DNA from: Candidatus Bathyarchaeota archaeon
GTDB taxonomy: Archaea > Thermoproteota > Bathyarchaeia > 40CM-2-53-6
DNA: 64,000 bases
Assembly (NCBI GenBank): GCA_963706285.1
Contig: CAVPLU010000010.1
Span: forward strand, 64,001 to 128,000
Direction: 5' to 3'
Of the stretch, positions 2,152-25,793 are shown one piece after another (position 1 is the stretch's first letter; every line of letters begins with the position of its first letter). A program made the translations under genes and the position numbers. A model generated the notes under the pieces. The model did not search any database. It was not told the origin of the DNA and saw only the letters and a list, made by a program, of their open reading frames with translations.

Positions 2152-2155
2152 GACC

Positions 2156-2578: not shown

Positions 2579-3014
2579 TCCGTTCGGAATGGTAGACATC
2601 TCGGGAAAAGATACAGTTCTTCGGAAAGCCGAAGCAGTCGGACGAATCATCCTCAAGAAAGAGACCATCGAGGCGATCAAGTCAGGTAACATCAAGAAAG
2701 GAGATCCCTTAGCCGCAGCTGAGATCGCCTGCATCCATGCAGTGAAGCAGACCCCCGATCTGATTCCGATGTGTCACAACATACCTATCGGCAGTGTGGA
2801 CGCGGACTTCACCATCGGTGTCGACTGGGTGGAAGCGAGATGCAGAGTCACAGCCACATACAAGACAGGAGTCGAAATGGAAGCTCTCACTGGCGTCTCA
2901 GTTGCCTTACTTACCATCTGGGATATGGTGAAGTATCTGGAGAAGAACGAGAACGGGCAGTACCCTTCCACGAAAATCGTGGATATCAGAGTCACGGAGA
3001 AAATGAAGAAATGA
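2565..3014 (+). CDS. moaC: Cyclic pyranopterin monophosphate synthase
   Basis: [26 protein letters not shown]; ATG at 2565 preceded by GAGGTG. Confidence 0.95.
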
Positions 3015-3511
3015 GCAAGCATGACCTGAACCGGAAAACGAAAGCAGCCTTCGCCCTCGTTATTACAAGCGACGAACGCAACACTGAAGATGACGAGACG
3101 GGCATCGCGGCTAAGAAGTTGATCGAAGCCGAAGGCCACAAGGTAACCAGCCACACAATAGTCCCCAACGACGCCGAGAGAATCAGAGCGAATGTGGAGA
3201 AGCATCTAGATGACCCTACCACCCAAGTCATTATCACAAGCGGTGGCACTGGAATCGGCTCCAAGGACAAGACCGTTGACGCATTAAGGCAACTGCTGGA
3301 AAAAGATCTCCCAGGTTTCGGAGAGCTCTTCAGGCGTCTCAGCTACAAAGACGTCGGCCCCGCCTCGGCCCTAAGCCGCAGCACTGCCGGCATCGCGAAA
3401 GGAAAAATCATATTCTGTCTTCCAGGTTCCAAGAACGCTGTCAAGCTTGCATTAAGCAAGATCATCCTTCCCAGCATTGGCCATATGCTGTGGGAGCTGA
3501 AGAGACAATGA
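3011..3511 (+). CDS. moaB: Molybdopterin adenylyltransferase MoaB/MogA
   Basis: [30 protein letters not shown]; ATG at 3011 overlaps the moaC stop. Confidence 0.92.
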
Positions 3512-9921: not shown

Positions 9922-10905
9922 ATGGCACAAGTCAGTCTATCTGAAAGAGCAATGAATGTTTTCGATCGTAAGGTGCAGGAGATTTCAGGATCGGTCCTGA
10001 ATGCACGTGATGTTACGACAATACAAGTGAACGTAGGGCTTCTCTGCAGCAATTCATGCATGCACTGCCATCTCGAAGCCAGCCCAGCGAGAAAAGAAAT
10101 GATGGGTTGGGAAACGATGCAGCTTGTGGTAGGTGTCGCCGATAAGATCCGCCCCAAATTGGTGGACATAACTGGAGGTGCACCTGAACTGAATCCTCTT
10201 CTCGCGAAGTTCGTTAATGCGCTGCGAAAGGGCAGTCATACCGTTCAGGTGAGGACGAACCTTGCGGTTCTACTTCAACCGAAAATAGAAGAGATGATGA
10301 CGTTTTACAGGAACGCTGGCGTCAGACTCGTTGCTTCGCTTCCCTGCTACACGAAAGCGAATGTTGATGCTCAGCGAGGAATTGGCGTCTACGAGAAGAG
10401 CGTTGAAGCTCTGAAGCGTCTGAACGCGATCGGCTATGGATCAGATGTCGACCTCAAGCTCGATTTGGTGTACAATCCAGGAGGAGCGTTTCTGCCTGGT
10501 GAACAATCCTCACTGGAATCTGATTATCGGGAGCACCTGCAGAAGGAACACGGCATCGTCTTCAGCAATTTGAGAACAATCACGAATATCCCGATAGGGC
10601 GGTTCCAGAACTGGCTTCGCCAGCAGAATCAGTATGAGGAGTACAAGCAACTTCTCAGGGATTCATTCAATCCTGAGACTCTTGAGGGATTGATGTGTCG
10701 ACATCAAATTGAGGTAGCTTGGGATGGACGAGTCTACGATTGTGACTTCAATCTGGCGCTACGAGCCCCAGTAGTCGCCGGTGTCTCGTCACATGTTAGG
10801 GACTTTGATGTTGACGCGTATTCTAAGAGGAGAATTGTCACGGGCGAATACTGCTTCGGCTGCACGGCCGGGCATGGATCATCATGCGGCGGCGCACTAG
10901 CCTAA
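9922..10905 (+). CDS. arsS: Radical SAM protein, ArsS/DUF3641 family
   Basis: QVNVG.LCSNSCMHCH, DITGGAPELNP, ASLPCY, LVYNP, MCR, YDCDFN, C-terminal CFGCTAG.GSSCGG. Confidence 0.85.
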   Translation: MAQVSLSERAMNVFDRKVQEISGSVLNARDVTTIQVNVGLLCSNSCMHCHLEASPARKEMMGWETMQLVVGVADKIRPKLVDITGGAPELNPLLAKFVNALRKGSHTVQVRTNLAVLLQPKIEEMMTFYRNAGVRLVASLPCYTKANVDAQRGIGVYEKSVEALKRLNAIGYGSDVDLKLDLVYNPGGAFLPGEQSSLESDYREHLQKEHGIVFSNLRTITNIPIGRFQNWLRQQNQYEEYKQLLRDSFNPETLEGLMCRHQIEVAWDGRVYDCDFNLALRAPVVAGVSSHVRDFDVDAYSKRRIVTGEYCFGCTAGHGSSCGGALA

Positions 10906-11150
10906 CTCATCAGGCTCGCCAAGTGCAACATATCTGCATGCTCGTTGCGCACGCACACGTCACACATCCTCTGAAAATTGCACTGTGGAATCAATGGTGC
11001 GGAATTCTGGCGCCCTAGAACTATCAAGCAAGGGGACCCATGGCGCTTGTCCAGTTCCTCAATCGAGACATAGTGACGACATGAGCTACTGGGAAACCAC
11101 GCAGTGCGGATATTTGTCAATGAATCAGAGTCGGAGTGAGCTGTAAGTGT

Positions 11151-11534
11151 CTACAGCTGGGCTCCGCACTTCTCGCAGAATTTGCTCTCGAGCGGTATCT
11201 TTGTTCCACAGCTGCGACAGAACTTGGTTGAGCCAGCGGGTTGCGTGCTGGGCTCAGCTGGTTGGGGTGCTGGAGAGGTCTGTTTTCCTGCAGCTACGTA
11301 GACTGTTTCTCCGTTTTTCGTTTCCTTCTTGACAACACCTTCTTCCACAAGGCCTTCCATCATTTCTTCGGCTTCTTGTCGGGATACGCCCTCTCTCGCT
11401 GCAATCGCTGCAAGTGTGACACCGCCAGCCGCCACGGTCATCGATAGGACTGTGGCTCTAGTGAGGCGTCGAAATCCTCTTCGGACTCCTCTTCTGACCA
11501 TTCTTCTCGCTCGAAACATATCGATAATCCTCAA
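11151..11534 (-). CDS. Arg-rich N-terminus + winged-helix-like segment + C-terminal zinc ribbon
   Basis: FCRSCG..FCEKCG zinc ribbon; VTLAAIAAREGVSRQEAEEMMEGLVEEG resembles a wHTH. Confidence 0.7.
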   Translation of the reverse strand: MRIIDMFRARRMVRRGVRRGFRRLTRATVLSMTVAAGGVTLAAIAAREGVSRQEAEEMMEGLVEEGVVKKETKNGETVYVAAGKQTSPAPQPAEPSTQPAGSTKFCRSCGTKIPLESKFCEKCGAQL

Positions 11535-11688
11535 ACAGGAATCGTTCTATTGGGTCATTACGATTGTTCAGAATTTAAGACATGTCCTGAGTGTTCGCAT
11601 AGCTTGGGCCCGTAGCTAGAATTGCACTCTGATCTCGTGATAACTGTTAAATTAACTGAGCTTGATGGTCTGGTTGAGGATCTGTGGA

Positions 11689-11814
11689 ATGTGGCGTGTT
11701 CGTAGAGCGAGAGCGAGAAGATCAATGTGGGGAATCTGGTTAGTCATCTTCATTTTCATCATCATTATAGTGGCCCTCGCCGCGATGCGATGGCGATGGT
11801 TACTGTTGCGCTAG
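11689..11814 (+). CDS. 41-aa single-TM peptide (not in ORF track)
   Basis: MWRVRRARARRSMWGIWLVIFIFIIIIVALAAMRWRWLLLR; GAGGA upstream. Confidence 0.55.
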   Translation: MWRVRRARARRSMWGIWLVIFIFIIIIVALAAMRWRWLLLR

Positions 11815-11829
11815 CGGAATGTGTTCAGC

Positions 11830-11991
11830 ATGGCTAATCTTCTCATTCTCCTTCTTGTGCTTGTGGGAGTCTTCGTTCTTTTTGCTGTTCTAGGATTCGC
11901 ATTTAGAGCATTGAAATGGCTTATCTCAATCGGCATAGTCGTCGTCGTTATTCTACTCATACTTTCGCTGATGAGGTTAATGCCACTGTAG
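11830..11991 (+). CDS. 53-aa two-TM peptide (not in ORF track)
   Basis: MANLLILLLVLVGVFVLFAVLGFAFRALKWLISIGIVVVVILLILSLMRLMPL. Confidence 0.6.
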   Translation: MANLLILLLVLVGVFVLFAVLGFAFRALKWLISIGIVVVVILLILSLMRLMPL

Positions 11992-12009
11992 TCTGATAGC
12001 GTTTAGACG

Positions 12010-12834
12010 GTGATAATCATTATGGCGTTTCTAGCACACGTATCATTGAAAAGGTCGGAGAGACTAGGCCTATTTTTTGTAACGTTGTTTCTATCTGGCC
12101 TGATATTTCCCTGCGAGACAGCCTTAGCAGCTGATGTCGCATCGAGCTGGAGAGGTGAGAGCGAAGTCACAGTTGATGGTATGTGGACTGCACGAGACGA
12201 GTGGTGGAACGCCACGCAGATGCAAGCTTATGGACGCGCAGGCTATTTCTGTATTCAGAATGACGATAAGTTTCTGTATGTTCTCATCGACTTCGTCTCG
12301 GACACGAATCTAGATGACAGGGACATGGCTAGGATAAGGATCGATGTGAAGAACGACAAGTCAGATCTCCCGCAGACAGATGACTTGATGATCCTTGTCG
12401 ACTGGCTGGAAGGTGCCCCTGTGACTAGGGCTGTCCGTGGTAGTGGAACTAGTTGGGTCCTGACGCAGGATGATCTGGGCGTGCGTGTTGCTCTCTCTGC
12501 CAATTCTCGAAACGATCGCTACTCGAAGGAGCATCATCTAATCTACGAATTTGCCATTCCGAGACAGATCTTCGGAGATAGATCCAAGATAGGATTCTCG
12601 GCTATGGCTGGAAGCCAGATGGGGACATCAGACGCCAATTTCATGAACCTTCCGAGAAGACACCATTTCATGAGACCATCTACGTGGGTCACGCTTCTAT
12701 TCGCAACTGAATCTGGAACGGGAACGGTGATCCCGTGGGGATTGATCGCTGTAGCGGCTGTAGTATTTGCCATTGTCGCAGCCATTGGAATCTACTATCT
12801 AAGGAGAAGAGAACGAAAACGAAGGTCGAATTGA
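12010..12834 (+). CDS. Secreted DOMON/CBM9-like beta-sandwich protein with C-terminal TM anchor
   Basis: Signal peptide, VTVDG.W..DEW, ND..FLYV, HLIYEFAIP, C-terminal TM plus RRRERKRR. Confidence 0.7.
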   Translation: MIIIMAFLAHVSLKRSERLGLFFVTLFLSGLIFPCETALAADVASSWRGESEVTVDGMWTARDEWWNATQMQAYGRAGYFCIQNDDKFLYVLIDFVSDTNLDDRDMARIRIDVKNDKSDLPQTDDLMILVDWLEGAPVTRAVRGSGTSWVLTQDDLGVRVALSANSRNDRYSKEHHLIYEFAIPRQIFGDRSKIGFSAMAGSQMGTSDANFMNLPRRHHFMRPSTWVTLLFATESGTGTVIPWGLIAVAAVVFAIVAAIGIYYLRRRERKRRSN

Positions 12835-12929
12835 TTTGGATGATCAAGAGAGCTTCAATTTGAATGGTTACAGATACTGCGTTCAATCCCGAAAAGTTGG
12901 AACAACCGTCAGTGTTGATTATCCAGGAG

Positions 12930-14876
12930 ATGGAAGAGATGAGACTCGATTTGAATAGCCGCCTATTTGCCGTTCTCTTGGTAGTCGTGGTTCTAAGCCC
13001 GACGTGTGTTGCCGCGTTGGCACCGCTTGACACGGCGTATTGTGGTGACGCTGTGTGCGCACCCTACGCCACAATAAAGAGTGTTGGATCCGTGAACCCG
13101 TATGTTTTGAAAGGCGTTCCATTCGAAATCTCCGTCGAGGCAGATGTCATTGCCTCAGAATATGCTACCTATGGATTCTACATTACGTATGCAGCAGCAG
13201 GGAAGTATGACTCTTGGCCCATCACAGGGGGGTATATGTCCAGCATACTGTATGGGTCCGGGTGGTTTGCGCAAACCGGCCCGGGTTATGGATCGATGTA
13301 CTATTGCCCTACATCAAAGAAAGTCTCGATCACGTTAAATGAACTCGGCCGCGTACCGCTTCATCTAGTCTTCTTTCATATGTCCAACATAGACTGGAAC
13401 AAAGACGGTGGTTGGCATCAGTACGTCTATGGTTCAACCCTTGGTAAACCTGTACCTCTGGGCAATACTCTGGCTACACGAGATTTTGAAGTTAATGTGT
13501 TGGCTTCTCTGCCGTCTGTTTCGATCTCGGATGTTCAGTATGTGAAGCCTCCGGATTCGATCACGGAGGGTGAGACTACGCCTGTAGTGGTGAAAGTAAG
13601 CTACAATCTTCCTGAGGCTATGACGTTGCAGTTTGACATTAATGATCTGGCTACGGGCGGAACTGTGGGTTCATGGGATTCAACGCAGAAGCTTTCCGGA
13701 ACAGGCGTTTTCACTTCATCGCCCATAAAGATCACATCTTTCGCGCCAAGTTCGATGGATGCGAGTAGGGCAGGTGACTGGAACCTTAGGGTTCAAGTAA
13801 GCGCAGAATCTACGCTAGGTTTGGCGGCGAAAGACACTGAGGACTTCACGATCAAGGTCGTTGCGAAGGCTTCGGCTACTCCGCCTGATGTGGACATAGC
13901 AAAAGTTGAGTATGTCAAGTCACCTGAAACAATCACTTTGGGCGAACCCACACCTGTGATAGTGACTGCAGAGTACCGGAACCTGCAGCCGAGTTCCAAG
14001 CTTCTGCTTTGGTTCAAAGATGTGGATACAGGCCAGGGCATAACCGGGGCGGTAGCATCGACAATTCTACCGGCGAGCGGAACCTACGTTTTCCCTCGGG
14101 CACAGTTGACGGCTTCAAAGACAGGTGACTGGCATCTGCAAGCTGTTGTGGAAGTGAACGCAGTTGGCGAAAGTACGGCAACGAGTAGCTTCACGATTAA
14201 AGTTGTTGCACCCACGGCTAGTGCACAGGCGCAGATCACGGACGTTGACTATGTGGCGTCGCCTGAAACTGTTTTGGTGGGAGAATCCACACCGGTGGTG
14301 GTTACTGTCAAGTACCAGAATCTTGTTCCAGGAACCAAACTAACCTTGAACATCATTGACCAAGCCTATACGTTCTACAGCCGAATCTCGGACCAGATAG
14401 TAGGTTCCACGACCTCAACCGCTCTCACCGGAAGCGGAACCTACACATTCCAGCCTGTATCCATCAAACCCGTTAGGGCCGGTGACTGGAGTCTGCAGGC
14501 TGAAGTACGTTTAGGAGATCACATGCTTATCTCAAATGGTTTCACCATCAAAGTTGTATCTGCAACGTCGACTTCGGCACCTAAGGTGAAGATAGTTGAT
14601 GTCAAATACGCTGAGCCTCCCGAGAAAGTCAAGGTCGGCAGACCCACCTCCGTGCAGGTTGCTATCCAATACTATGACCTAGCTCCAGGCACCAGGTTGA
14701 CTCTTGAGATCACTGAAGAAGGCAGAAGCCTCGCGACGTCTTCCTCCCCGCCTCTCACCGGAAGCGGGACTTACGTCTTCGACGTCGACATCATGCCGAA
14801 GAGGACTGGTGAATGGCGCCTTGTGGCAGAAGTTTCCGGTGAACGAGCCACCTTAACGATCTTAGTCGTATCCTAG
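12930..14876 (+). CDS. Secreted protein with four tandem ~115-aa Ig-like repeats
   Basis: Signal peptide; repeat consensus I.DV.YV..PE.I..GE.TPV.V.V.Y.NL...GTY.F...R.GDW.L..V seen four times. Confidence 0.8.
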   Translation: MEEMRLDLNSRLFAVLLVVVVLSPTCVAALAPLDTAYCGDAVCAPYATIKSVGSVNPYVLKGVPFEISVEADVIASEYATYGFYITYAAAGKYDSWPITGGYMSSILYGSGWFAQTGPGYGSMYYCPTSKKVSITLNELGRVPLHLVFFHMSNIDWNKDGGWHQYVYGSTLGKPVPLGNTLATRDFEVNVLASLPSVSISDVQYVKPPDSITEGETTPVVVKVSYNLPEAMTLQFDINDLATGGTVGSWDSTQKLSGTGVFTSSPIKITSFAPSSMDASRAGDWNLRVQVSAESTLGLAAKDTEDFTIKVVAKASATPPDVDIAKVEYVKSPETITLGEPTPVIVTAEYRNLQPSSKLLLWFKDVDTGQGITGAVASTILPASGTYVFPRAQLTASKTGDWHLQAVVEVNAVGESTATSSFTIKVVAPTASAQAQITDVDYVASPETVLVGESTPVVVTVKYQNLVPGTKLTLNIIDQAYTFYSRISDQIVGSTTSTALTGSGTYTFQPVSIKPVRAGDWSLQAEVRLGDHMLISNGFTIKVVSATSTSAPKVKIVDVKYAEPPEKVKVGRPTSVQVAIQYYDLAPGTRLTLEITEEGRSLATSSSPPLTGSGTYVFDVDIMPKRTGEWRLVAEVSGERATLTILVVS

Positions 14877-15066
14877 TGGATTGTCTGTGCGTACTGCCTT
14901 GCAGTGTTCGAATAGCATTACTCCTTGGTGGGTCTCGTGGTGCACATACACGTAGCCCCGTCGCGAATTTCATCACCCAATCATTTGCCTGTCCCATGAG
15001 CGAAGATCTTAGGCCTTCGTTTCGCATGAAACGCTGTGTGATAGGCGCTGACCTGAATTTTCGGAA

Positions 15067-15081
15067 TGGCGCCGGGAGAGG
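15067..15081 (-). other. tRNA 3'-end fragment (Ser-like, CCTCTCCCGGC-G-CCA)
   Basis: Plus strand TGGCGCCGGGAGAGG is the reverse complement of an archaeal tRNA-Ser-type acceptor 3' strand with G73 and CCA; only 15 nt. Confidence 0.4.
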
Positions 15082-15253
15082 ACTCTGCCCAGAGAGTTCA
15101 GCGTGGAGTCAGTGTGTGTGGTTTCGTTGTTGCGCGTGTTCGGGGGAAGGTCCGGACGGACGAGCGTCAAGCAGTGTAATGTCTGAATGGGAGCATGATC
15201 CAACACTTGCTTACAGATTTGTCTTTGTTCGGGCGCCTGTCACACGATAGGCC

Positions 15254-15466
15254 CTAACAACTCACTTCCTTGTCAACTTCTCCTTCGGCGTAGAAGACAA
15301 CCAAGGCGTCAGTGTCCTTGTAGTTGCAGTGAACAACTGCGACGTTGCTGACTACCTTTGGAGCTGGACCAGAAGGTGGTTTCCATGGCTCCTCGACAGG
15401 TCCACTTCCGCCACTCCCAGGTGGTCTGAACGGCTCCTCGATAGGCACATTATTCTTTTCCACCAA
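15254..15466 (-). CDS. 70-aa hypothetical protein with duplicated P[IV]EEP[FW][RK]PP motif
   Basis: AGGTGA ribosome-binding site 7 nt before TTG; internal repeat. Confidence 0.6.
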   Translation of the reverse strand: MVEKNNVPIEEPFRPPGSGGSGPVEEPWKPPSGPAPKVVSNVAVVHCNYKDTDALVVFYAEGEVDKEVSC

Positions 15467-15780
15467 TCTATCTCACCTGAACAGAACAAGACACGTAGCC
15501 GCTTATCAAAGCGGGCTATCCTATGGACGACTTGCCATACACAGCTCCGAGAAGAGACTCAGCTTCAACTCCACAGCCTACTGCTCGTGGATTCGAACCC
15601 TTCCAGATTCGAACCTCTCTCAATCTTGAATCCATCTCCAGCAACAGAATCGTCGCCGTCTCTCGCGTCGAGTACACCACTCCAGGCTAGATCGTCCAAG
15701 TTGAGAGTCATGTGAGCGTAGCTGAAGTGAAAGGAGATACCCATCCGGGGTTTGTGTGAACTGCGTCGAGCAGTAGAGAG

Positions 15781-15819
15781 CGATATCTGCCCCTAGTTAG
15801 GGGCAAGTACCACCGGGCC
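15781..15819. repeat. 39-bp hairpin-containing repeat, copy 1 (copy 2 at 22256-22294)
   Basis: 35/39 identical by manual alignment; contains hairpin TGCCCCT-N4-AGGGGCA. Confidence 0.85.
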
Positions 15820-15863
15820 CGCCGTTCTGATCTGACTAACAGAGTCTGGTGCCATCTTGGGGA

Positions 15864-15913
15864 GACCTTGACAAAGACGAAAGGACCCAGACAAGGTCTA
15901 TGGTGGACCGGGC
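15864..15913 (-). repeat. tRNA-Ala-like 3' end (GCCCGGTCCACCA) plus flank, homologous to 22139-22188
   Basis: ggacccagacaaggtctatggtggaccgggc vs ggacccgctcaaagctcatgatggaccgggc. Confidence 0.65.
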
Positions 15914-16148
15914 CATTTCCGTCCTAGCGTAGAAGCCCGCACCCGATAGCTCCGTAGTGATGTCGGGGTTGAGTCGGGTTCACAAGATATGACCCACGAC
16001 GCTAGGAGGATGCTCGGTGAGCCGACCCTTCACAACGAAAGATAGCCTTCTCAGCCTGACATCAACGTAAGGTGTCAATGAGCCGTGGTACGATACGAAG
16101 CTGAGCTCACGTATCTAGAGTAGTTGGGTAATCCCCTCTCTGGCCGCG

Positions 16149-16929
16149 CTACCCCACCGGTACGTTATCCACGCGAATCGCTCTTCGTCGCGTCACGATC
16201 AATGCCAGCAAAACGACTATGGGAAGGAGAAGAAAAGTCGCGGCGAACTCGGGAACCACGCCATATTCGACGGTGCTGTATTCAATGCTTTGAGCGTACA
16301 GAGTGTAGCTATCCACAAGCGTTACGCGTGTTTTCTCGAGTGTTATGATTTCGAAAGACGCTAATCTGGTTCCGACGGCGATGTCTGTTGGATCGCAATA
16401 GCTCATGGCTGCGTCCACAACCTTGCCTCCTGAATCATATAATGTCGCGGCGACCTTCGTTTCGTGAGCAATTCCTGAACCACTGTTCCTGATCTTTCCG
16501 CTGATGTGAAGAAATCCAGCGGCGTCTACGCTCTTGCTGCTTGAGACTATCTCTAGGAAAAGAGGTAGATTCGTAGACTGTTCGTAGGTCACGACAAGCG
16601 TCATAGTGGTCCGTCCTCGCCGATTGCACAAAGTCAATAACAGTCATGTCGAAGGGAGCCTTGCGACCAGGCTCAAGTATTGTTATCATCGTCTGACTCG
16701 ACCTCGTGCCGAGGAGAGTATTATTTGAAGTGTAGAACGTAGCCGTGATCATGACTGCCGTTATTGCAGTACTGCCAGTATTCTGGACTTCTCCAACCAC
16801 ATGATAGAGTCCCACGCTGTTGAGGTATCCGCTACTGCTCAGAACCGTTGCTTGCCCTTGAGCGGCAGCTGGAATGACAAACTGAAGGGGCAACAGCAGA
16901 AAGAGGCCAATCATGAGGCACTTCCTCAA
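16149..16929 (-). CDS. Secreted FxLYD-domain protein (two domains) with PEF-CTERM sorting signal; one-base insertion at ~16602
   Basis: VVGEVQNTG..ATFY and ISGKIRNSG..ATLYD domains; C-terminal VPEF + TM + RRR; ORFs 16435 and 16149 join if one base is removed. Confidence 0.8.
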
Positions 16930-17076
16930 TGATTTCACTCCTCGGTAGACCGGGCTGTTCAAGCATTTGAGTTATTGGTATGGATTCTCATCCTCGCTCA
17001 TGTCAGACTAGGTGAGAACGTTAAGAGGGAATCACCTTGTCTCGGTCAAAACGACTCCTGACGTTTCAGCCGATTT

Positions 17077-19293
17077 TCATCGCGCTCCTTTCGCGTCTTG
17101 CGCTAATAGTGCGTGTTTCATCTCAAGTCTCTTTGGAGCTCTGTTCGACGAAGTGCGGCCCGACGCCAGTTTCACCTGCCTCTTTCTTGAAGTTCTCTTC
17201 GTAGCTAAGTAGATGCAGACGGCGACAACTACGATTGCTCCCCCTGCCAATCCGTAGAGATAGGCGGATTGGCTGACGGTGGATTGGCTTACCTCAATTG
17301 TGAATTTGTCAAGACCATACGGTGCTGCGTTGAACTCACAAGCGTACTCGCCTGAGCCGATCTTTCCGGTGTCGATACTTGCGGTGTAGAGACCATTCGA
17401 ATAGGAGGTGGGTAGATCGAGAAGGATCTTATCGTCCTTGCTCACGATCAATCTGAACGTTGCCTGGGGATCACTAACCACGCCTCTAGTATAATTCAAC
17501 ACTTCATACTGCACATTAACGAGTTGGCCGGCTGACGCGTTCAGAGACCCCAGCTGCCTTTCGACAAGCCCCGGTTTCTGAGGGTTCTTTCCGAAGTACA
17601 GCGGGTTCCATGCAAGAGTCACAGATTTCTTGAGATCCCCTTGCGCGAAAATGAAAGGTCCCTGCCCCACCAGCTTAGTCAGCCCTTTCACGGATGGGTT
17701 AGGTTCCTCCCAAGGTTTGAAGTTCTTGTAGTCTTTCACATTGCTCCAAACATGTTCGGGCAGGAAAGTCATCCATGCGAAATCATAGACATGCCTGTAT
17801 CCAGTGCTGCTAATGTAGATCTGTAAGGTCGTAGGATCAGGAGCTTCCACCCTCATGACGTCGCTTAGGACGGCTAGATACTGCGGAACCTTGTTCGATT
17901 GCAGGTATTCAATGGTGAACTTCACGTCACTGGCTGTGAAAGGTTGACCGTCCTGCCATCTTACATCGTCTCTCAACTTGAAAGTGATCTTCATTCCTTC
18001 CTTTCCCGCAGCATAGCTCCATGTTTCAGTTACCCACTCTTTGGCGAGAACAGGGAGGTCATGTGATGTGACAGGGTCTACGCTGAAAAGGGGGCTGTAG
18101 AGAAGCTCGAGAACGCGCCACTCCTGCGTGCGACTGACAAGTGCAGGATTCAGAGTTGTAAACGGTCCCTCAACGCTCTGTGTGAACTTGCCACCAAACT
18201 GTGCTCCAGCCCTGCTCAAGTTGAGGTAGGTCCATGGGTTTACCACTCCGTACCCCCGCATGTTGGCGACGCCAGTCCAATCCGAGGAGACTGCGGTGAG
18301 TGTTGGGATCGAGTATATTGGCACATATGGTAGCAGGTAGGCGAGTCTCGCTTGCGCATCACGAGCTCCCCTAAGTGCCTCAGACTTGGTTGTTCCCGAC
18401 CACAAGGTTTCAAGTGCCCTGTCAAGAATCAGATCATGTATTCCGGAGTAGGCCAACGTCCAATTTCCGTCTCGTGAGGAATGAAACAATGCGTATAGTC
18501 CGAAAGGAGCAGCGGCCAGAGCAATGTCAGCAATCAATATGTCGTAGTCTCTGTCTCTCATCGTTCTCGCAACAAACAGATAGTCCGGCATTGTTGCATG
18601 CGTCGTCTGAATTCCAGCAGCGTTCGCATAATAAGCTACAACCTCCCCCGCGGCCCAGAGATCAGGATTCTCTGAACGCGTTGGGGTCAGCAGCGTAATC
18701 TGTCGCAGAGGTGCCCCGGTTCTTGGGTTCAGTCTCGTGCCCGTCTGACTGTCAAGTGCGTATCCAGCCTTATCAAACATCGTTGTAGCGTTCCGAAAGC
18801 TGAACTGAGGTACAGAAGCATCATAATTGGTCCATTCATCGGAGGCAGGGGGGACGAACGTTGTCGAAGGTTCCGCCCATCCATCTAACAGAACTTCAGC
18901 TATGTATTTTCCGTTAACTAGATGTGAAAACGCGTTTCGAAACAATCCATCATCAAAAGGCGAGCGCCTGCAGTTGAAGAAAAGAGATGCAAAGTGGAAG
19001 CTCCCTGCAGGAGACTTGTACACTCTGATATTTGGATAGGTGGCAAGGTTCTCCGCATCTTTGATGCTCCTGATGTTTTGGATCATGTCAATTTGATGAT
19101 TCTTGAGGTATGCTACTTCCTGATCGTAGCCCAAAAGTGGCGCTACAGAATAGACGATCTGATCAACATTCGGACCACACGGCCCAAACGCACATGGTTG
19201 TCCGCTGCTCGATTGTGCTACTGCGGGGGGGAAGCTCGGTATCGTTGCCAGCAGAAGGAGCATTGTCACGTAGGCCCATCTTGAGCCAGGCAT
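17077..19293 (-). CDS. ABC peptide/oligosaccharide substrate-binding protein (family 5) with C-terminal TM anchor
   Basis: FN..R.PFDD..FRNA, TLNP, TFKLRDDVRWQDGQPFTASDVKFT, GQGPF; signal peptide and C-terminal TM; no permease genes adjacent. Confidence 0.85.
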   Translation of the reverse strand: MPGSRWAYVTMLLLLATIPSFPPAVAQSSSGQPCAFGPCGPNVDQIVYSVAPLLGYDQEVAYLKNHQIDMIQNIRSIKDAENLATYPNIRVYKSPAGSFHFASLFFNCRRSPFDDGLFRNAFSHLVNGKYIAEVLLDGWAEPSTTFVPPASDEWTNYDASVPQFSFRNATTMFDKAGYALDSQTGTRLNPRTGAPLRQITLLTPTRSENPDLWAAGEVVAYYANAAGIQTTHATMPDYLFVARTMRDRDYDILIADIALAAAPFGLYALFHSSRDGNWTLAYSGIHDLILDRALETLWSGTTKSEALRGARDAQARLAYLLPYVPIYSIPTLTAVSSDWTGVANMRGYGVVNPWTYLNLSRAGAQFGGKFTQSVEGPFTTLNPALVSRTQEWRVLELLYSPLFSVDPVTSHDLPVLAKEWVTETWSYAAGKEGMKITFKLRDDVRWQDGQPFTASDVKFTIEYLQSNKVPQYLAVLSDVMRVEAPDPTTLQIYISSTGYRHVYDFAWMTFLPEHVWSNVKDYKNFKPWEEPNPSVKGLTKLVGQGPFIFAQGDLKKSVTLAWNPLYFGKNPQKPGLVERQLGSLNASAGQLVNVQYEVLNYTRGVVSDPQATFRLIVSKDDKILLDLPTSYSNGLYTASIDTGKIGSGEYACEFNAAPYGLDKFTIEVSQSTVSQSAYLYGLAGGAIVVVAVCIYLATKRTSRKRQVKLASGRTSSNRAPKRLEMKHALLAQDAKGAR

Positions 19294-19314
19294 TGTGCGG
19301 TCAATCCTCCAAGC

Positions 19315-20070
19315 CTAGGGGCCGCCAGAGGAGGGAGGGGGGCATTCCTCGGTGATTACTGAGTTGAAGAATGCGTTCAGATTGCTACTTACCTGCTCTT
19401 CGATGGGAGCGAAATTGCCTCCCCAGCCCGTGACTTGGTTTGTGAAAACAACATTCCCTTGGCCGTCTTTCACTGTCACGGTGACCAGTCCAACTGAGTT
19501 CGGAGAGCTCTGATCTCCACTCACATGCTCTGTTACCGATACCGAGTAGCCGACACCGTATCCTGCGTATGGAGTATAGCTAACCGCAGTGGCGGGATCG
19601 ATTTCACCCGCATTGATCAGCTCATTTTCCTGATTCAAGAAGGGCAAGGTCGAGACATCGACGATTCCTACCGACTGTGATTGTCCGATACCATTGACCA
19701 AGTCAAAAGCTATCAGGTCAGTGCTGACCGGCTGCGGAGGGTTGGTTCCCTGTGAGAATTCGCCAACATCAACAACAATCACAATGACATTGTCAGTCGC
19801 GCCCCCTCCACAGCCACCGCCACCGTTACCTCCTTCATCTGGGGGCGGAGTCGGTGGAGGAGGATCCCCATCTGGAGGAGGCGGCGGGGGCGGAGGTGGT
19901 GGAGGCGCTGCGAATGTTCCAGAACCAAACCCAACTTGCACCGGTTCGTTGAGTGATCGGGATAAGGAGTGTGGCATAGAGGCTTGGGCACTAGACTCTA
20001 CAGAATAAGAATGGGTGAGGAGTAGGAAGAATAGGAGGATTAGTAGACCGATGCTAGATCGAGTTCTCAA
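19315..20070 (-). CDS. Secreted proline/glycine-rich hypothetical protein
   Basis: Signal peptide, run of 11 Pro, GGNGGGGCGGG; GGAGG upstream. Confidence 0.65.
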   Translation of the reverse strand: MRTRSSIGLLILLFFLLLTHSYSVESSAQASMPHSLSRSLNEPVQVGFGSGTFAAPPPPPPPPPPPDGDPPPPTPPPDEGGNGGGGCGGGATDNVIVIVVDVGEFSQGTNPPQPVSTDLIAFDLVNGIGQSQSVGIVDVSTLPFLNQENELINAGEIDPATAVSYTPYAGYGVGYSVSVTEHVSGDQSSPNSVGLVTVTVKDGQGNVVFTNQVTGWGGNFAPIEEQVSSNLNAFFNSVITEECPPPSSGGP

Positions 20071-20208
20071 CTATCCTCCAGAACAAATCCGTCTCGCACA
20101 TCCTTAAATGACTAGTGCCCAGACTCGAATCTAATCTTCTAGACAACGGAGACGCTGACGGCAAATCGTCTTATAGGCACGACACGGAGTGTCAGCGGTG
20201 AGAGGAGG

Positions 20209-22101
20209 TTGGGCATTCTGAGGTGCCCCCATTTCCGTTTCTTCTGCCTTTGCATTCTTGTCGCGTTTAGTGTTACAGGTGTCCGTGTTCCTGCCGTGGG
20301 GGCAACCTACGCTGAGACAAGCTGGACTACAGTTACAGTGAACGTGAGCCCTTCTACGCCTATTGACATTCATGCTTCAAGCGGCTACGTGAGATCCTAT
20401 CCACGTGATCTAATTGTGAATTATAGCTATGCGATAATAGCATCTGGAAAGAGTTTCCAAATATCGATACACGTCGCTCAATCATTCGCATTCGCAAACG
20501 TAACTGGTACGACGATCCTTGTGAATCCGAAGAAGCCGTTCACGCATGCTATGGGCTTTGATGAGTTGGGGAACGACGTCTTGACCATCAACTTCGACTC
20601 TGAGAGTCCTCTGGGACAGTTCTATTTGACTGTGCTTCAGTATGTGACTGTCTACTCGATCAAGTACACTATCGACCCAGCCAAGGTCGGAAGCTATGAC
20701 AGGAGTTCAGAGCTCTACAAGGTGTACACGAAACCAGCCGAGTTCATTCAGAGCGATAACCCAGAGATAATGGCGACATCGCGGCAAATTGTGGGGGAGG
20801 AAAAGAACCCGTACCTGGCCGCGCTGAGAGTACAGAACTACGTTGTGCAGCACATGACCCGTGATGACGCTTTGCTCCCATGGAGTGCTGAACACGAGGG
20901 CGCGTTGTTCGCTCTACACTCGGGCAAGGGAGTCTGCCGACACTTTCCCGCCTTGTTCACAGCTCTCGCCAGAGCGGCTGGAATCCCCACCATTGACATC
21001 TGGGGATCTACACCAACTGACGGAGGCAACATGGCGGACCCCGGCGATTTGAAACACAACTGGGTGCAATTCTATGTGCCCAACTATGGGTGGATCCCTA
21101 CAGACCCGTCTGATGAAAACGGCCAAGGCGTTGACCAATTCGCTCGGTTACAGGACAATTCACGTGTTCCCGTCATGTCCGTCAACTATTTGGTCCAAAC
21201 AGCGTGGTGGTCAGGAGGAGATGCACAAGCCATCTCAGAGAAGGGAACAATCCTCTTAGGAGAACAGCCGACGATCTCAATACCGCCCTCAACTGTCACG
21301 GCGAGCCTACCGCAGGGCATATCATGGAATACTCTATCCGATGCCAAGGGGGATTTGTCTGATCAGAACGGCAGATCCGTGGGCGATCTGGGCCTGCCGT
21401 ACTTAGACATTAGCAGCCTAGCCGCCGGGTTCGCTGGAGAATCACTATTTTTCCGCTTCGATCTGAACGGCAAAGTTCCCAGCCAGATTGATACCACGCA
21501 CGTTGGCACGATTTGGTATTCGGTGCTTGTTGATGTTGATCCCGATTCCCGCACAGGATACCAGTGGAGCAGCGATTTCACGCCGGACTACACGTTGAAT
21601 GTCGGCATCACGTCGCGAACCCATAGCGTACTCTACTCCTCGATCTGGAAATATGCAGGCAACGGAACAAGTTGGAGCTGGATAACCCTCGACTATAACA
21701 CTCAGCAACCTGTTGTCGCTGGCGGAAGCGGACAAGATTCCTTTATCCTAAGTTGTCGGTATGGAGATATTTCGGTTTCTGGAGGATCGAAGATCCGGTT
21801 GTTTGCTCGAAGCGGCATTATGTACGATGGCAAGACATACAATGACTTGGTTCCTGACAAGGGCACCCTCACCGTGACCATGCCTTCGTCCACAGTGACA
21901 ACAATGTTCTCCGGAACCGCTGTAGCGACGACGACGCCATCCACCGTAACCAGCACGACGGGAAGCGCTGTCTCCGCTCCTCCCACTGCAGGCGTAGACA
22001 TGAGCCTAACGCTGCTTTTCGCTGTACTCGGCATAGCCGTCGTTGGAATCATCATATTCGTGATCAGAAAACAGCGACCAAGCGCTAAAAGCGAATCCTA
22101 A
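20209..22101 (+). CDS. Membrane-anchored transglutaminase-like protein with beta-sandwich domain and S/T linker
   Basis: GVCRHF (Cys), HNWVQFYVP..GWIPTDP (His/Asp) triad; Thr-rich linker, C-terminal TM. Confidence 0.85.
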   Translation: MGILRCPHFRFFCLCILVAFSVTGVRVPAVGATYAETSWTTVTVNVSPSTPIDIHASSGYVRSYPRDLIVNYSYAIIASGKSFQISIHVAQSFAFANVTGTTILVNPKKPFTHAMGFDELGNDVLTINFDSESPLGQFYLTVLQYVTVYSIKYTIDPAKVGSYDRSSELYKVYTKPAEFIQSDNPEIMATSRQIVGEEKNPYLAALRVQNYVVQHMTRDDALLPWSAEHEGALFALHSGKGVCRHFPALFTALARAAGIPTIDIWGSTPTDGGNMADPGDLKHNWVQFYVPNYGWIPTDPSDENGQGVDQFARLQDNSRVPVMSVNYLVQTAWWSGGDAQAISEKGTILLGEQPTISIPPSTVTASLPQGISWNTLSDAKGDLSDQNGRSVGDLGLPYLDISSLAAGFAGESLFFRFDLNGKVPSQIDTTHVGTIWYSVLVDVDPDSRTGYQWSSDFTPDYTLNVGITSRTHSVLYSSIWKYAGNGTSWSWITLDYNTQQPVVAGGSGQDSFILSCRYGDISVSGGSKIRLFARSGIMYDGKTYNDLVPDKGTLTVTMPSSTVTTMFSGTAVATTTPSTVTSTTGSAVSAPPTAGVDMSLTLLFAVLGIAVVGIIIFVIRKQRPSAKSES

Positions 22102-22175
22102 CTTGGACTTGAGTCGAATCTCAAGTTGTCAAAGGGCTGACCAGGACGCGGAGAGAGGGACCCGCTCAAAGCTCA

Positions 22176-22294
22176 TGATGGACCGGGCGGGATCTGGACC
22201 CGCGACCTTCAGAGGCACCTGTCTAGGTCCTAATCTTGATCGATTTAGTGAAGAACGGTATCTGCCCCTAGTGAGGAGCAAGTACCACCGGACC
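22176..22294 (-). pseudogene. Degenerate tRNA-Ala-like element, 119 nt
   Basis: 3' half GGTCGCGGGTCCAGATCCCGCCCGGTCCATCA resembles the archaeal tRNA-Ala T-arm and acceptor; 5' GGTCCGG pairs with it; T-loop and CCA degenerate. Confidence 0.6.
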
Positions 22295-22412
22295 TCACCT
22301 TCCATTTCGCTGTTACGCACCACTAGACATATCGCACACGCTAAGATAGTTCGAAGGTTCAGGGGGCTTCAGTCTGCAGCGACCAGCAATTGAGTCAAAG
22401 ATCCAATCCATC

Positions 22413-23423
22413 TTGGACAAGGCGTTAGCAGGCGATGAAATAGATCGTGAACAAGCGTCGCAGCTTCTGAAGACAGACGACAAGTCACCCGAAATGTATG
22501 CCATCATTTCAACGGCAAATACCCTGACGAGGAGACAGTATGGTGACAGAGGCGAAGTCTATGGTACGGTTGGGATAAACCTCTGGCCTTGTCCCAGGAG
22601 TTGCGCTTTCTGCTCCTTTGGAGCAAAGTGGAACTTGATCGAGGCACCGGTCGAATTCACTCTCGAAGAAGTTGTTGCTAGGGCAAAGTCGCTGGAAGAC
22701 GATGGCGTGAATGCTATTTTTCTGATGACCACTGCAGACTACCCGTTTGACCGCTACGTCGAGATCGCTAAGGCCGTGAGGAGAGCTCTCTCGGCGAAGA
22801 TGCCGATGGTGGCGAACGTAGGCGACTTTGGATCCGACAAAGCCAAGGATCTGGTCGACGCAGGATTTCAGGCCGTATACCATGTCCACAGATTGGGAGA
22901 AGGCAAGGACACTGGAATAAGCACTGAAGAGAGACTGCAGACCATAGGTGCTGCGCGAGATGTAGGACTCGACCTCAGCTACTGCGTTGAACCCATTGGA
23001 CCTGAACACACTCCGGCAGAATTGGTTGCCGAAATGTTTCGAGGAAGAGAGTTCAATGCGGTCAACCTCGCTTGTATGTGGAGAGTTCCTGTGCCAGGGC
23101 TTCCGCTTTCGAAGTTCGGGAGAATTTCTGAGGTGACCTTGGCCAAGACTGTTGCAGTGACAAGGATAGTGGCTGGTGATTCCATCAAGGCAATGGGTGT
23201 TCATGAACCCAGAATTCTCCCTCTAATCGCCGGTGCCAACCAGATCTATGCACAGACGGCCGGCTTTTCGCCCCGAAGGCGCCCCATTCTCAAAGACTCG
23301 GACGAGGAATCGTCGAAGAGAAAGGGTTACTCTGTTGAAGACTGTAGGAACCTGCTCAGAGAAGCAGGCTACGTCCCTCTCGAAGGCCCTACGAAGGTGT
23401 TTCGGGGCAACTGGTCGTCCTAG
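22413..23423 (+). CDS. Biotin-synthase-related radical SAM protein
   Basis: CPRSCAFC motif, GANQIYA near C-terminus; BioB/HydE-like size and layout. Confidence 0.75.
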   Translation: MDKALAGDEIDREQASQLLKTDDKSPEMYAIISTANTLTRRQYGDRGEVYGTVGINLWPCPRSCAFCSFGAKWNLIEAPVEFTLEEVVARAKSLEDDGVNAIFLMTTADYPFDRYVEIAKAVRRALSAKMPMVANVGDFGSDKAKDLVDAGFQAVYHVHRLGEGKDTGISTEERLQTIGAARDVGLDLSYCVEPIGPEHTPAELVAEMFRGREFNAVNLACMWRVPVPGLPLSKFGRISEVTLAKTVAVTRIVAGDSIKAMGVHEPRILPLIAGANQIYAQTAGFSPRRRPILKDSDEESSKRKGYSVEDCRNLLREAGYVPLEGPTKVFRGNWSS

Positions 23424-23672
23424 GGCCGAACAGGTCGATACAAGGTCATGCGCGTGGCTGGTTGACTTTGGGATGTCACGCCGGCAACGCAAAAAAACCA
23501 TTGGAATAGCGAAGAATTTGATCCCGTCGTCATACCCTGGAATCGAAAATGACATCCGGGCACTTGCAATTCCCGAGATAAGACAAGTTGAATGAGAGAC
23601 CTCACATCTTCAGTCCAAAGCGCTATAATCCCTGTTGCTGCCTCTACTCAGTTGATTCATGTTGGATGCAAA

Positions 23673-24041
23673 ATGCGAATAGCAACAGCCGAAGACGCAG
23701 AGAGCCTAGTGAGGAAATACTTACTCGGCACCAGAACTTCTCACGGGAAAATCTCCACTTTGTCGGCCGAAGAGAAGACCGAGGGCCCGGACAATCAGGG
23801 CACGTGGAGAGTCAAAGGAACATACCTCACGGAGGCAGGCATCAGATCAAAATTCTCGGCCAGCGTCTCGTCGCGCGGCGAAGTGTTGATCACTAGCTCA
23901 AGTTCCACTAAATCGAAAAGGCAATCCGGCAGAAGTGATGTGGGACGTAAGTTGACCAGCACAGAATACGCTGCAAGAAGGCGGCGAAGAAAGAAACAAA
24001 CCCCTGGGAAGCGCACCAAACCACGCAGAAATATTGCCTGA
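23673..24041 (+). CDS. Hypothetical protein with basic C-terminal tail
   Basis: IATAEDAESLVRKYL..TWRVKG (PepSY-like pattern), Lys/Arg-rich tail. Confidence 0.55.
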   Translation: MRIATAEDAESLVRKYLLGTRTSHGKISTLSAEEKTEGPDNQGTWRVKGTYLTEAGIRSKFSASVSSRGEVLITSSSSTKSKRQSGRSDVGRKLTSTEYAARRRRRKKQTPGKRTKPRRNIA

Positions 24042-24080
24042 CACAGAGACGGCAGCCTTACGTCGGTACGTCTACGGTGC

Positions 24081-24281
24081 CTACAATCTTCGTTCCCTGA
24101 ACAGTCTTTCAAGAAGCACCGGCAAGTCCTCATGATTCTTTGTAGCTTGGTCATCCAAGCTTACTTGCTGTTCTCGAGTAAGTAACTGCCAAGAGTGAGC
24201 GATCTCGTCAGTAGTCTCGTATGTGTGAACTCCACCCGGTCTTCTATCATGCCGGCGAACGGCCGCGCTAATCCTTGCCAT
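24081..24281 (-). CDS. Small hypothetical protein
   Basis: ATG-started 66-aa ORF with protein-like composition; no motif recognised. Confidence 0.35.
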   Translation of the reverse strand: MARISAAVRRHDRRPGGVHTYETTDEIAHSWQLLTREQQVSLDDQATKNHEDLPVLLERLFRERRL

Positions 24282-24677
24282 AGCGCAAAGATGGTCCGGC
24301 GGCTACAATAAGGTCTCGGTTCAGGTCGCGAAGCTGTGTTCCGTTTTTCCTATGATATCATGTCCAGGGATATTCAGTGCTTCTTACGCTGACGGGCTTG
24401 ACGGGCCTTCGCAATCGATCGAAAACGAGTCTATTCATGGCGATTGGTTGGCCAAAACGAGTGTTTGGTCTCTTCCTTATAGCTCGCAATGCAGCTACTG
24501 GTAATGAAGATCGTAGTGATGACGTTTCCAGCAAGATGCAAGAAATGCGGCGGTCCTATATTGTCGGTGGGATTGCTTTCTGGAAGCGACCTTTGTATGG
24601 GTTGTGCCAGAATCGTAACTGCTAGGAAAATGAGCCTCACTCTAGAGTAAACTGCGTATGTTCTGCAATCAAAGTTC

Positions 24678-25793
24678 GTGCGGGATTTGAAAGCGCTTTT
24701 AGTGGAATGTATTCTTCCTCGAAGCAAATCGCGAATCGATGAAGTGAACGACATAGCGAAAGCTGCTGGCTACGATGTGGTCGGTCAAGTCACGCAGCAT
24801 CGAGACTCGGTGGATTCAGCCTATTGTGTAGGCAAAGGGAAAATTGATGAGATCAAGGAGACTGTCACGGAAGACTCGATCGAGGCGATAATATTCACGC
24901 GACAACTTTCGGCAGGTCAAATATTCCGAATCCAGAGGAAGCTTGGTGATGTTCTCGTTCTCGACAGAAACCTGCTCATTCTGGAAGTTTTCGAGAAGCG
25001 CTGCGCCACGACTGAAGCTAGGCTGCAGATTGCATTGGCGCGGCTCCGATACACGTTCTCTTGGGGCAGAGAATCAATTCGAATGCACGGTATTGCAAGT
25101 GAGCAGATGGGAAGGGGAGGGCCGGGTCAGTATCCATATGAAGTCTATGAAGCGGTGTCGCGCAAACGAATAAGCAAGATCGAAGGGGAGCTTCGTGATA
25201 TTAGATCGAAGAGCAACCGTCTTCGTGAACATCGAGGAAAGGCTGGCTTCCAAATCGTAGCGTTGACAGGGTACACTCAAAGTGGCAAGACCACGCTGTT
25301 CAACAGACTCGCGTCGGAATCGAAGGAAATAGGTTTGGGACCATTTACGACGCTCTCTACATTTGCACGTAAGGTCTCCCCAAATGGGAGAGGGGATTCT
25401 TCTGACTCCTTCATCATGATTGATTCTATTGGGTTCATTGAAGATCTTAGTCCTCTGCTGCTAAGCGCTTTCCACACCACGCTGAATGAACTTGCAAATT
25501 CTGATCTTGTTCTCCTCTTCGTAGATGGTAGCGATGACCTGGAAACGGTGATACGAAAGATCACGGCTTCTCATGAGATCATGAGTAAGGAAATGCACGG
25601 CGTTCCTGTTTTGATCTGCATCAACAAAGTGGACCTTGTGACTCGTGAACATTTAGACAAGGTGCTCGCGGAGACTCGCAAGATATTCGCGGAAGATGAA
25701 ATACTCGAAATAAGTGCGAAGACTGGAGCTAACGTACCAAGTCTCCTGCAGAAAGTTGCTGAAAGGTTAATGCCGACGGTTCAGGCAACGTGA
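24678..25793 (+). CDS. hflX: HflX-family GTPase
   Basis: VGKGK, DRNLLILEVF, EARLQIALA, GYTQSGKTTLFN, DSIGFI, NKVD, ISAKTG. Confidence 0.9.
   Translation: MRDLKALLVECILPRSKSRIDEVNDIAKAAGYDVVGQVTQHRDSVDSAYCVGKGKIDEIKETVTEDSIEAIIFTRQLSAGQIFRIQRKLGDVLVLDRNLLILEVFEKRCATTEARLQIALARLRYTFSWGRESIRMHGIASEQMGRGGPGQYPYEVYEAVSRKRISKIEGELRDIRSKSNRLREHRGKAGFQIVALTGYTQSGKTTLFNRLASESKEIGLGPFTTLSTFARKVSPNGRGDSSDSFIMIDSIGFIEDLSPLLLSAFHTTLNELANSDLVLLFVDGSDDLETVIRKITASHEIMSKEMHGVPVLICINKVDLVTREHLDKVLAETRKIFAEDEILEISAKTGANVPSLLQKVAERLMPTVQAT

Follow-up and report, generated by a model that had tools for sequence, protein, structure and literature searches.

In a 64,000-nucleotide stretch of a Candidatus Bathyarchaeota genome (the window; contig C10:64001-128000 of the source assembly, G000), a block of surface-protein genes lies between partial repeats with tRNA-derived ends. 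We propose that these repeats are junction remnants of the attL/attR type, probably the result of recurring site-specific insertions at tRNA 3' ends and of rearrangements there. One repeat, B, consists of a hairpin followed by the heptamer CCACCGG; the other, A, is a 3' fragment of tRNA-Ala with a flanking sequence behind it (the A-flank). The non-tRNA partners of these ends, namely the B hairpin, the A-flank, and a 103-nucleotide (nt) arm with the stump of a gene for a protein of ~535 amino acids (aa), recur at tRNA-end junctions in relatives and in metagenomes. G000 comprises 2.13 Mb in 21 contigs at 51% GC and is 89% complete with 7.5% contamination. It was compared with its closest relative, the sister genome G001, and with other congeners (G002-G009); all genomes compared are fragmented metagenome bins. 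The features that define the block and its surroundings are:

15772..15819, plus strand: repeat B, left copy (B_left), with the hairpin at 15787-15807, then TA and the conserved CCACCGG at 15810-15816
22247..22294, plus strand: repeat B, right copy (B_right), with the hairpin at 22262-22282 and CCACCGG at 22285-22291; adjoins the island edge
10938..22299, no strand: variable island of 11.36 kilobases (kb), not at the same locus in the closest relative

The two B copies of the window are direct repeats that agree at 41 of 48 positions (85%), an alignment score reached by 0 of 2000 shuffles. The hairpin is present in both, in keeping with the earlier note on this DNA, which had described a hairpin-bearing repeat at the two ends of the block. 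The direct pair encloses 6.5 kb; G000 holds three B copies, none closer together than this. Five congeners carry one or two copies each at E ≤ 1e-5, and a sixth, G009, has a weak match of 20 nt only. Copy number in G000 and its congeners is always one to three per genome, and arrays were never seen. When a degenerate B pattern was run against 185,579 species genomes, it matched congeneric Bathyarchaeia contigs only (5 stretches), and it had no matches in viral contigs or in JGI metagenome contigs. B is 93-98% identical between species while the surrounding DNA is 65-81% identical, a pattern that would fit either an element end that has spread recently or strong constraint. Past CCACCGG the copies split at once, into a tRNA-Val-type 3' end (three copies), a CGGACC-type continuation (two) or T-loop-like words (ATTCGAAC; three). 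Because they part right past the heptamer, the joint can be placed in or directly behind it.

Where do the B copies lie relative to variable DNA? Four of the B copies allow a comparison of G000 with G001, and every one of them lies at a synteny breakpoint, which bears out the suggestion that the repeats mark boundaries of variable DNA. Five other copies (two in G002 and one each in G005, G007 and G003) fell outside this comparison, having no close sister genome. B_right stands at the island edge. Nucleotides 1-1002 of G001 contig C292 match window 9936-10937 at 94.7%, nucleotides 1055-3677 match window 22300-24916 at 92.2%, and ~52 unrelated nt separate the two matches, so that C292 presents an empty site with the join 10937/22300. 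The segment 10938-22299 is thus an indel relative to the sister genome, with its right edge at B_right, and it is this segment, not the repeat-bounded block between 15.8 and 22.3 kb favored by the earlier note, that forms the unit of variation. Parts of the island are found elsewhere in G001, in other contexts.

The remaining three copies are equally placed. B_left is a breakpoint relative to the tRNA-Val(GAC) locus on G001 contig C235. The third G000 copy (C14:13828-13872) has its flanks on two G001 contigs, each running beyond the break, and CCACCGG is retained at the break in the G001 allele. The fourth copy, on G001 contig C111 (L012, 451-1539), caps a 1.09-kb insertion whose site is empty in G000 (C13:~68541-68553). 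That empty site is intergenic and T-arm-like, and a core of ~12 nt is duplicated at the two joints. Within the insertion lie a PemK/MazF toxin gene (E 7.5e-13) and, upstream of it, a small open reading frame (ORF) of 64 aa.

Two further hairpins were noticed alongside B. A second palindromic hairpin, of the GCACTC...GAGTGC type, lies beside tRNA fragments in G002 contig C134 (L009) and G001 contig C235 (L045). It is joined to ...CCGCCGG-TAT, is placed as B is relative to a T-loop-like word, and is not present in G000; it may represent a sister family of element ends. Within the window, a 39-nt hairpin-forming stretch (22094-22132) right behind the transglutaminase-like gene is 90% identical to a site on G001 contig C227.

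The tRNA-derived features at the two ends of the block are:

15810..15823, plus strand: 3'-terminal 14 nt of tRNA-Val(GAC), in sense orientation (T-stem 3' strand, acceptor CGGGCCC, G, CC)
15824..15886, plus strand: displaced native downstream flank of tRNA-Val(GAC), homologous to G001 contig C235
15864..15900, minus strand: left A-flank (the sequence found behind the tRNA-Ala CCA in relatives), a weak member at 5.7 bits, in register
15901..15913, minus strand: 13-nt tRNA-Ala 3' end GCCCGGTCCACCA, a core common to real tRNA-Ala genes
22135..22175, minus strand: right A-flank, a strong member (profile match 18.5 bits, E 0.0034)
22176..22210, minus strand: 35-nt tRNA-Ala 3' fragment (variable loop, T-arm, acceptor strand), with T-loop TCCAGAT and end TCA

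The tRNA end in B_left can be traced to its source. G000 has an intact tRNA-Val(GAC) at C4:424463-424581, and its orthologue is intact on G001 contig C235, 960 nt of which (the tRNA gene and upstream DNA) are 97% identical to G000 C4:425422-424463. Directly behind the intact gene in G001, the DNA is 79% identical to the plus strand of the window at 15810-15886, whereas the intact gene in G000 is now followed by a gene for a Cys/Met-metabolism enzyme. Both the G001 gene and the DNA behind it correspond to the plus strand of the window, so the tRNA-like end of B_left consists of the 14 terminal nt of a tRNA in plus orientation, and the earlier view of part B as a 5'-half-like piece on the minus strand does not hold. 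The tRNA-Val flank runs head-on into the left A-flank with its tRNA-Ala fragment. Positions 15810-15913 are thus the relic of a native locus at which tRNA-Val and tRNA-Ala converged, with foreign DNA now in place of both tRNA bodies.

The two tRNA-Ala fragments lie on the same strand, 6.27 kb apart, and bracket the surface-protein block. Read on the minus strand, 22210-22176 agrees at 91-92% with the 35 terminal nt of the three real G000 tRNA-Ala genes; with the tRNA-Val 3' end in B_left, this confirms a tRNA origin of the repeats. When seven A-flank copies from other genomes were made into a profile, it found the right flank as its sole match at E ≤ 1 in the whole of G000. The left flank scores lower, in register directly behind the CCA, and the best of 28 control tRNA flanks reached 1.1 bits. 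The right flank shares 87-88% identity with those behind real tRNA-Ala genes of G002, G005 and G006, where the A-flank stands directly behind tRNA-Ala(CGC) in G002, tRNA-Ala(UGC) in G005 and a gene cut by the contig end before the anticodon in G006. It also follows GGGCCCG-type tRNA ends on G001 contig C300 and G006 contig C81. Compared directly, the left and right A-flanks are alike at chance level only (456 of 2000 shuffles reach the score). Of part A as first described, the tRNA-Ala acceptor 3' strand with CCA or TCA at both ends stood, and the ~35-nt flank homology between the ends proved weak. Either the A-flank natively lies downstream in a tRNA locus, or it is an element's near arm; the layout of metagenome contig L082, described below, would favor the native reading.

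Do A and B form a single tRNA-like unit at the right end, as had been suggested? The right unit does fold into a cloverleaf-like shape with a four-way junction (z = -2.09, a fold equalled by 7 of 200 shuffles), because the acceptor-like word beside B and the Ala acceptor strand share a CCGG palindrome. However, no 5-bp anticodon stem can be drawn upstream, the T-loop TCCAGAT means that A58 is lost, and the unit ends in TCA. ARAGORN found no tRNA at either end of the block or within 10938-22299, and Rfam gave no tRNA match at either end at the gathering score and none for the right unit even at E ≤ 10. Genuine G000 tRNAs reach up to 60 bits against the Rfam model RF00005; they have one to three introns each, with CCA encoded in nearly all. 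In a motif scan, ~30 tRNA 3' ends of G000 all had CCA and a perfect 5' acceptor in cis. The single-unit idea therefore fails.

A broader form of this idea is that B, alone or with the right tRNA-Ala fragment, is a functional structured RNA, such as a regulatory or processing element or an intron-rich, split or permuted tRNA, whose position at breakpoints is incidental. The hairpin is kept in most B copies, one B_right substitution gives a G-U pair on the minus strand, and a T-arm/acceptor-like fragment follows B within 15-45 nt in three species (the right end in G000, G007:C115 and G001:C111). The four-way junction of the right unit also speaks for such an RNA, as do the real G000 tRNAs, which have up to three introns and are hard to detect, and the housekeeping genes that adjoin B in several loci. 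These points must be set against the missing anticodon stem, the TCA end where every real 3' end in the motif scan has CCA, the loss of A58 and the lack of any ARAGORN or Rfam match. Moreover, all three Ala isoacceptors (GGC, CGC and UGC) are already present as ordinary genes on contig C4, and the B hairpin lacks a bulge-helix-bulge shape. The substitutions contradict one another on the strand (minus for the right copy, plus for G007), and the hairpin is gone from the G005 copy. B_left has, as its 5' part, the tRNA-Val 3' end in antisense, and B scores no better than shuffles against tRNA 5' halves. We consider a structured RNA improbable.

Several specific tRNA models were tried and rejected. 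The right unit as a functional tRNA gene receives no score from RF00005 and has the defects already named. As an intron-bearing tRNA, one fit made by hand needs the anticodon CUA, C33 and an 8-nt 'intron', with neither a bulge-helix-bulge nor model support. A split or permuted tRNA was discarded on three grounds: the apparent 5' acceptor of B_left is the tRNA-Val antisense, the hairpin has no 3-nt bulges, and the Ala isoacceptors are already complete. A permuted tRNA at the left end, with the 3' half ahead of the 5' half, is ruled out by the homology to G001 contig C235. Finally, aligning B with the 5' half of tRNA-Ala or tRNA-Ser, interrupted by a D-loop intron, looked good by eye, but the Smith-Waterman scores equal the median of shuffles.

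Two observations concern the tRNA complement of G000 more generally. Several of its tRNA-Ala T-loops read TCCGAAT, with C at position 55. At C4:348195-348325 there is a second tRNA-like 3' end with TCA for CCA, with a matching 5' acceptor 100 nt upstream, and this may be a second degenerate tRNA.

The left tRNA-Ala fragment is the 3' end of a longer conserved block:

15914..16016, minus strand: conserved non-coding 'arm' 5' of the Ala core, 103 nt, in 7 of 59 family genomes and 33 metagenome contigs
16017..16059, plus strand: stump (first ~14 codons) of a ~535-aa Bathyarchaeia gene

On the minus strand, 16059-15901 is 86-89% identical in three other genomes of two genera and matches more weakly in three more. 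A pattern from the 3' part of the arm matched the 33 contigs in JGI metagenomes and none among viral contigs, and the arm had no match in Rfam. Wherever it occurs (in the window, L038 and L072-L110), the block of ~160 nt closes with the tRNA-Ala acceptor strand and CCA, and it is non-coding over the 3' ~100 nt. From 24 sequences, RNAalifold predicted only an invariant 6-bp hairpin and three acceptor-like pairs with little covariation. A 165-nt conserved block ending at 15901 was considered as a new structured RNA and rejected on that lack of covariation and because its 5' third is the antisense of a protein-gene start, the first ~20 codons of the ~535-aa gene. As a side observation, the arm hairpin and the three G-C/G-U pairs resemble an acceptor/T-arm minihelix with G3:U70.

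The ~535-aa gene is widespread in Bathyarchaeia and intact beside the arm in three contigs (L097:170-1774, minus strand; L084:172-1794; L092:966-2582) and broken in others; no homologue was found in G000 beyond the stump in the window. Among 8000 candidates scored, 606 matched the family at E ≤ 1e-5, mostly unnamed proteins or winged-helix regulators. Family members are often on short contigs and often fragmented, and they belong to no Pfam family. Three winged-helix domains of the protein are modeled with confidence; its C-terminal domain, which bears an invariant D...ExK motif, is modeled poorly. A fold search returned tandem winged-helix proteins only (TM ≤ 0.19), and a sequence search of the PDB had no matches. 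The protein may be a nuclease of a mobile or defence element.

Relatives that carry the arm show what an insertion at tRNA-Ala looks like. The DNA behind the CCA of the arm varies between contigs and is the A-flank in 4 of 33. Among the 20 arm contigs with at least 2.2 kb upstream, four have the T-arm and 3' end of a tRNA-Ala intact and equally oriented, at a distance of 2.2-4.9 kb on the upstream side. Three of these four tRNA-Ala ends lead into another conserved flank, which in L105 lies behind a third partial copy instead. Contigs L082 and L102 encode a protein of 551-579 aa that matches the integrase family PF00589 (29.8 bits, cut-off 27.1) and ends at the core, and in L082, the only one to extend that far, a second partial tRNA-Ala end with the A-flank follows 6.4 kb on. 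None of 75 other neighboring proteins of the arm contigs matched an integrase family at E ≤ 1e-8. On G005 contig C6, there is a real tRNA-Ala with the A-flank, and 24 nt of its 3' end are repeated 2.2 kb farther on; no integrase is present. These findings for the A-flank and the arm, with the occurrence of B in congeners, bear out the prediction that the repeats are families recurring in related genomes. A minimal 2.2-kb single-gene element at tRNA-Ala was also considered and rejected, since the corresponding interval in L086 and L104 is occupied by other genes, with the ~535-aa gene reduced to a stump.

What enzyme could have acted at these sites? PF00589 proteins occur in 5 of 10 genomes of the genus, and three of their loci adjoin tRNA genes or tRNA fragments; these three loci are short, and neither B nor A is present in them. 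No PF00589 protein, XerA-type recombinases included, was found in the 89%-complete G000 assembly. No integrase was found in the window between 1 and 38 kb. The earlier note was right that no recombinase is linked to the repeats, as none was found in the island or in the assembly. Its larger proposal, a working cassette system with the recombinase in trans, is not supported, because the assembly has no such recombinase and the repeats have diverged. Measured against a tyrosine-integrase element, the locus has direct repeats of tRNA parts and empty sites with the break at the core (all four comparable B copies); no intact tRNA is regenerated at an end, and no integrase lies in the element.

Inserted DNA has B at one of its ends, a few bases from the joint and always oriented alike. 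This invites another explanation, in which a hairpin-dependent mobile system (attC-like or IS200/IS605-like) recognizes B as a folded single strand and moves small cassettes with an enzyme in trans. Two direct B copies bracket 6.5 kb, and the one B-capped cassette is a toxin-antitoxin pair, of a kind common in chromosomal integrons. Integrons have been reported in Archaea (bioRxiv 10.1101/2022.02.06.479319). Nevertheless, neither a Y1 transposase nor a PF00589 protein was found in G000, B occurs in one to three copies per genome and never as an array, and the far end of the 1.09-kb insert has no B-like hairpin. The stem base lacks GTTRRRY/RYYYAAC boxes. The CCACCGG core and the ~12-nt duplication would better suit double-strand site-specific recombination. 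This explanation is, in our view, quite improbable.

Three narrower assignments of B were rejected outright. As a transposon terminal inverted repeat it fails, since the window copies are direct and the 1.09-kb insert has one B. Membership in an integron is contradicted by the lack of PF00589 (IntI) in the genome and of an attC array, and an IS200/IS605 element or a derived miniature element by the lack of PF01797 and by the 1.09-kb insert having B at one end only.

A number of observations weigh against site-specific insertion at tRNA ends as the origin of the repeats. The left island edge (10937/10938) has no repeat of either core, and ~52 nt of G001 are lost there. The island has no mobile-element genes by Pfam, PHROGs or NCBIfam, and no intact tRNA lies at its ends or within 10938-22299. 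Neither the integrase family PF00589 nor the Y1 transposase family PF01797 was found in the 89%-complete G000 assembly. Around the B loci of relatives, no integrase was found within the stretches examined, and no tRNA at the Rfam gathering score. The one integrase case at the arm counts once, as L082 and L102 are near-identical. Three kinds of continuation past CCACCGG are not explained by one simple att model. The divergence of the two B copies (85% identity) and the low score of the left A-flank imply that the events are old or that the copies come from separate events. Chimeric joins are also a slight possibility in metagenome-assembled genomes such as these, with the contamination of G000 at 7.5%.

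Could the whole pattern come from such chimeras of assembly or binning, or from ordinary deletion and duplication at short repeats, with no site-specific recombination? The fragmented state of every bin compared, the untidy left island edge, and the short and partly palindromic nature of the tRNA-like words would all be expected. However, the repeats of 13-48 nt are short relative to the k-mers that assemblers usually employ. The same joints of arm and core appear in independent assemblies and in 33 metagenome contigs, and the breakpoints fall exactly at conserved cores in four of four cases. We regard this account as very unlikely.

We therefore return to junction remnants at tRNA ends as the explanation that best joins these observations. 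Successive site-specific insertions at tRNA 3' ends would fuse partial tRNA ends to element arms. Tyrosine integrases would cross over within a short core, CCACCGG at the border of T-stem and acceptor for B and GCCCGGTCCACCA for A. Secondary recombination may then have parted the fragments from the intact genes, and later decay may have removed the tRNA partners and the recombinase. The surface-protein genes would be the cargo of a flexible island rather than of a working cassette machine. A bolder version is unlikely but worth stating: B with CCACCGG and the 103-nt arm with GCCCGGTCCACCA could be the working ends of small, so far undescribed families of Bathyarchaeia-specific gene-shuffling modules at tRNA 3' ends or their look-alikes. 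Such modules would usually be integrase-free, would carry single cargo units (the MazF pair, surface-protein genes), and would perhaps be mobilized in trans by a tRNA-linked integrase or by the ~535-aa protein.

The cargo of the island between the two ends consists of the following genes:

16149..16962, minus strand: FxLYD-domain surface protein in two overlapping frames
17077..19293, minus strand: homologue of solute-binding-protein family 5, with the profile halves in swapped order
19315..20070, minus strand: Pro/Gly-rich protein with a hydrophobic N-terminus and no family match
20209..22101, plus strand: transglutaminase-like protein with a hydrophobic C-terminal stretch

Both overlapping FxLYD ORFs carry the domain and the second ends in a membrane anchor; the pair is probably one frameshifted surface-protein gene. 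In the solute-binding-protein homologue, the second half of the profile matches residues 41-274 and the first half residues 364-572, so the gene is rearranged or fused. The island further includes a TrmB-like regulator and proteins without family assignment. GC content is 0.48-0.54 inside and outside the island and does not set it apart.

More tRNA-like words lie to the left of the block. The two T-loop-like words at 15589-15616 are present as first described. Of the 'Ser-like end' reported nearby, there is a 16/16 match at 15066-15081 on the minus strand to two class-II tRNA 3' ends, with marginal support (E 0.011-0.044). Both sites are within ORFs without homologues. The tRNA-like words between 15.0 and 15.8 kb suggest further junction debris.

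Why do these remnants matter? The mobile elements of this Bathyarchaeia lineage are barely described so far, and its flexible surface-protein DNA appears, like that of better-known archaea and bacteria, to have been put together where tRNA genes end. The B hairpin with CCACCGG, the A-flank and the 103-nt arm offer sequence markers for island boundaries and mobile DNA in metagenome bins. The right unit also illustrates how tRNA-like folds from neighboring junction fragments can imitate a gene. Island building at tRNA ends is a known process; the conserved end-pieces found here are undescribed.

How does this locus compare with known systems? The fused tRNA ends and separated fragments match the habits of archaeal integrases, which favor tRNA 3' ends and whose att sites may extend outside the gene, as set out in a review of archaeal integrative elements (PMC8371274). 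They also match the tRNA fragments of Caldiarchaeum subterraneum described by Sugahara et al. 2012 (PMC3293823), by whom scattered tRNA fragments are reported to arise through element integration. The tRNA-targeting elements of archaea (SSV-, pNOB8-, pTN3- and pT26-2-type) resemble the present case (PMC8371274) in partial tRNA 3' copies that bracket the insert, crossover in the T-arm/acceptor region, homology beyond the tRNA gene and tandem stacking. Unlike them, our locus has neither an integrase nor an intact tRNA, and its cargo is surface proteins. The B hairpin and the 103-nt arm match no described element, and Bathyarchaeota are not mentioned in the text of that review.

Two archaeal cases can be set beside this locus. 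In Caldiarchaeum subterraneum (PMC3293823), as here, a tRNA fragment lies far from the intact gene and close genomes are heterogeneous; there it is a 5' fragment with a 1.8-kb recombinase-encoding element, whereas here the fragments are 3' and have no recombinase. The integrase-driven tRNA-gene rearrangements reported for Thermococcales (PMC5495485) share a synteny break exactly at the tRNA 3' end, comparable to the intact tRNA-Val(GAC) on C4 with its native flank on C10. In contrast to the Thermococcales, no inversion is demonstrable in our fragmented assemblies and no plasmid integrase was identified here.

Two further systems are alike in layout. The attC sites of integrons (archaeal integrons: bioRxiv 10.1101/2022.02.06.479319) share with B an imperfect hairpin at the cassette end and a direct orientation, and one cassette here is likewise a toxin-antitoxin pair. 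Unlike integrons, the present system has no IntI, no array and no R'/R'' boxes, and it has a double-strand-type core with target duplication. The tRNA-anchored additive islands and tycheposons reported for Prochlorococcus (bioRxiv 10.1101/2020.12.28.424599) belong to another domain of life; a flexible cargo island, partial tRNA repeats and integrase-free remnants are common to both.

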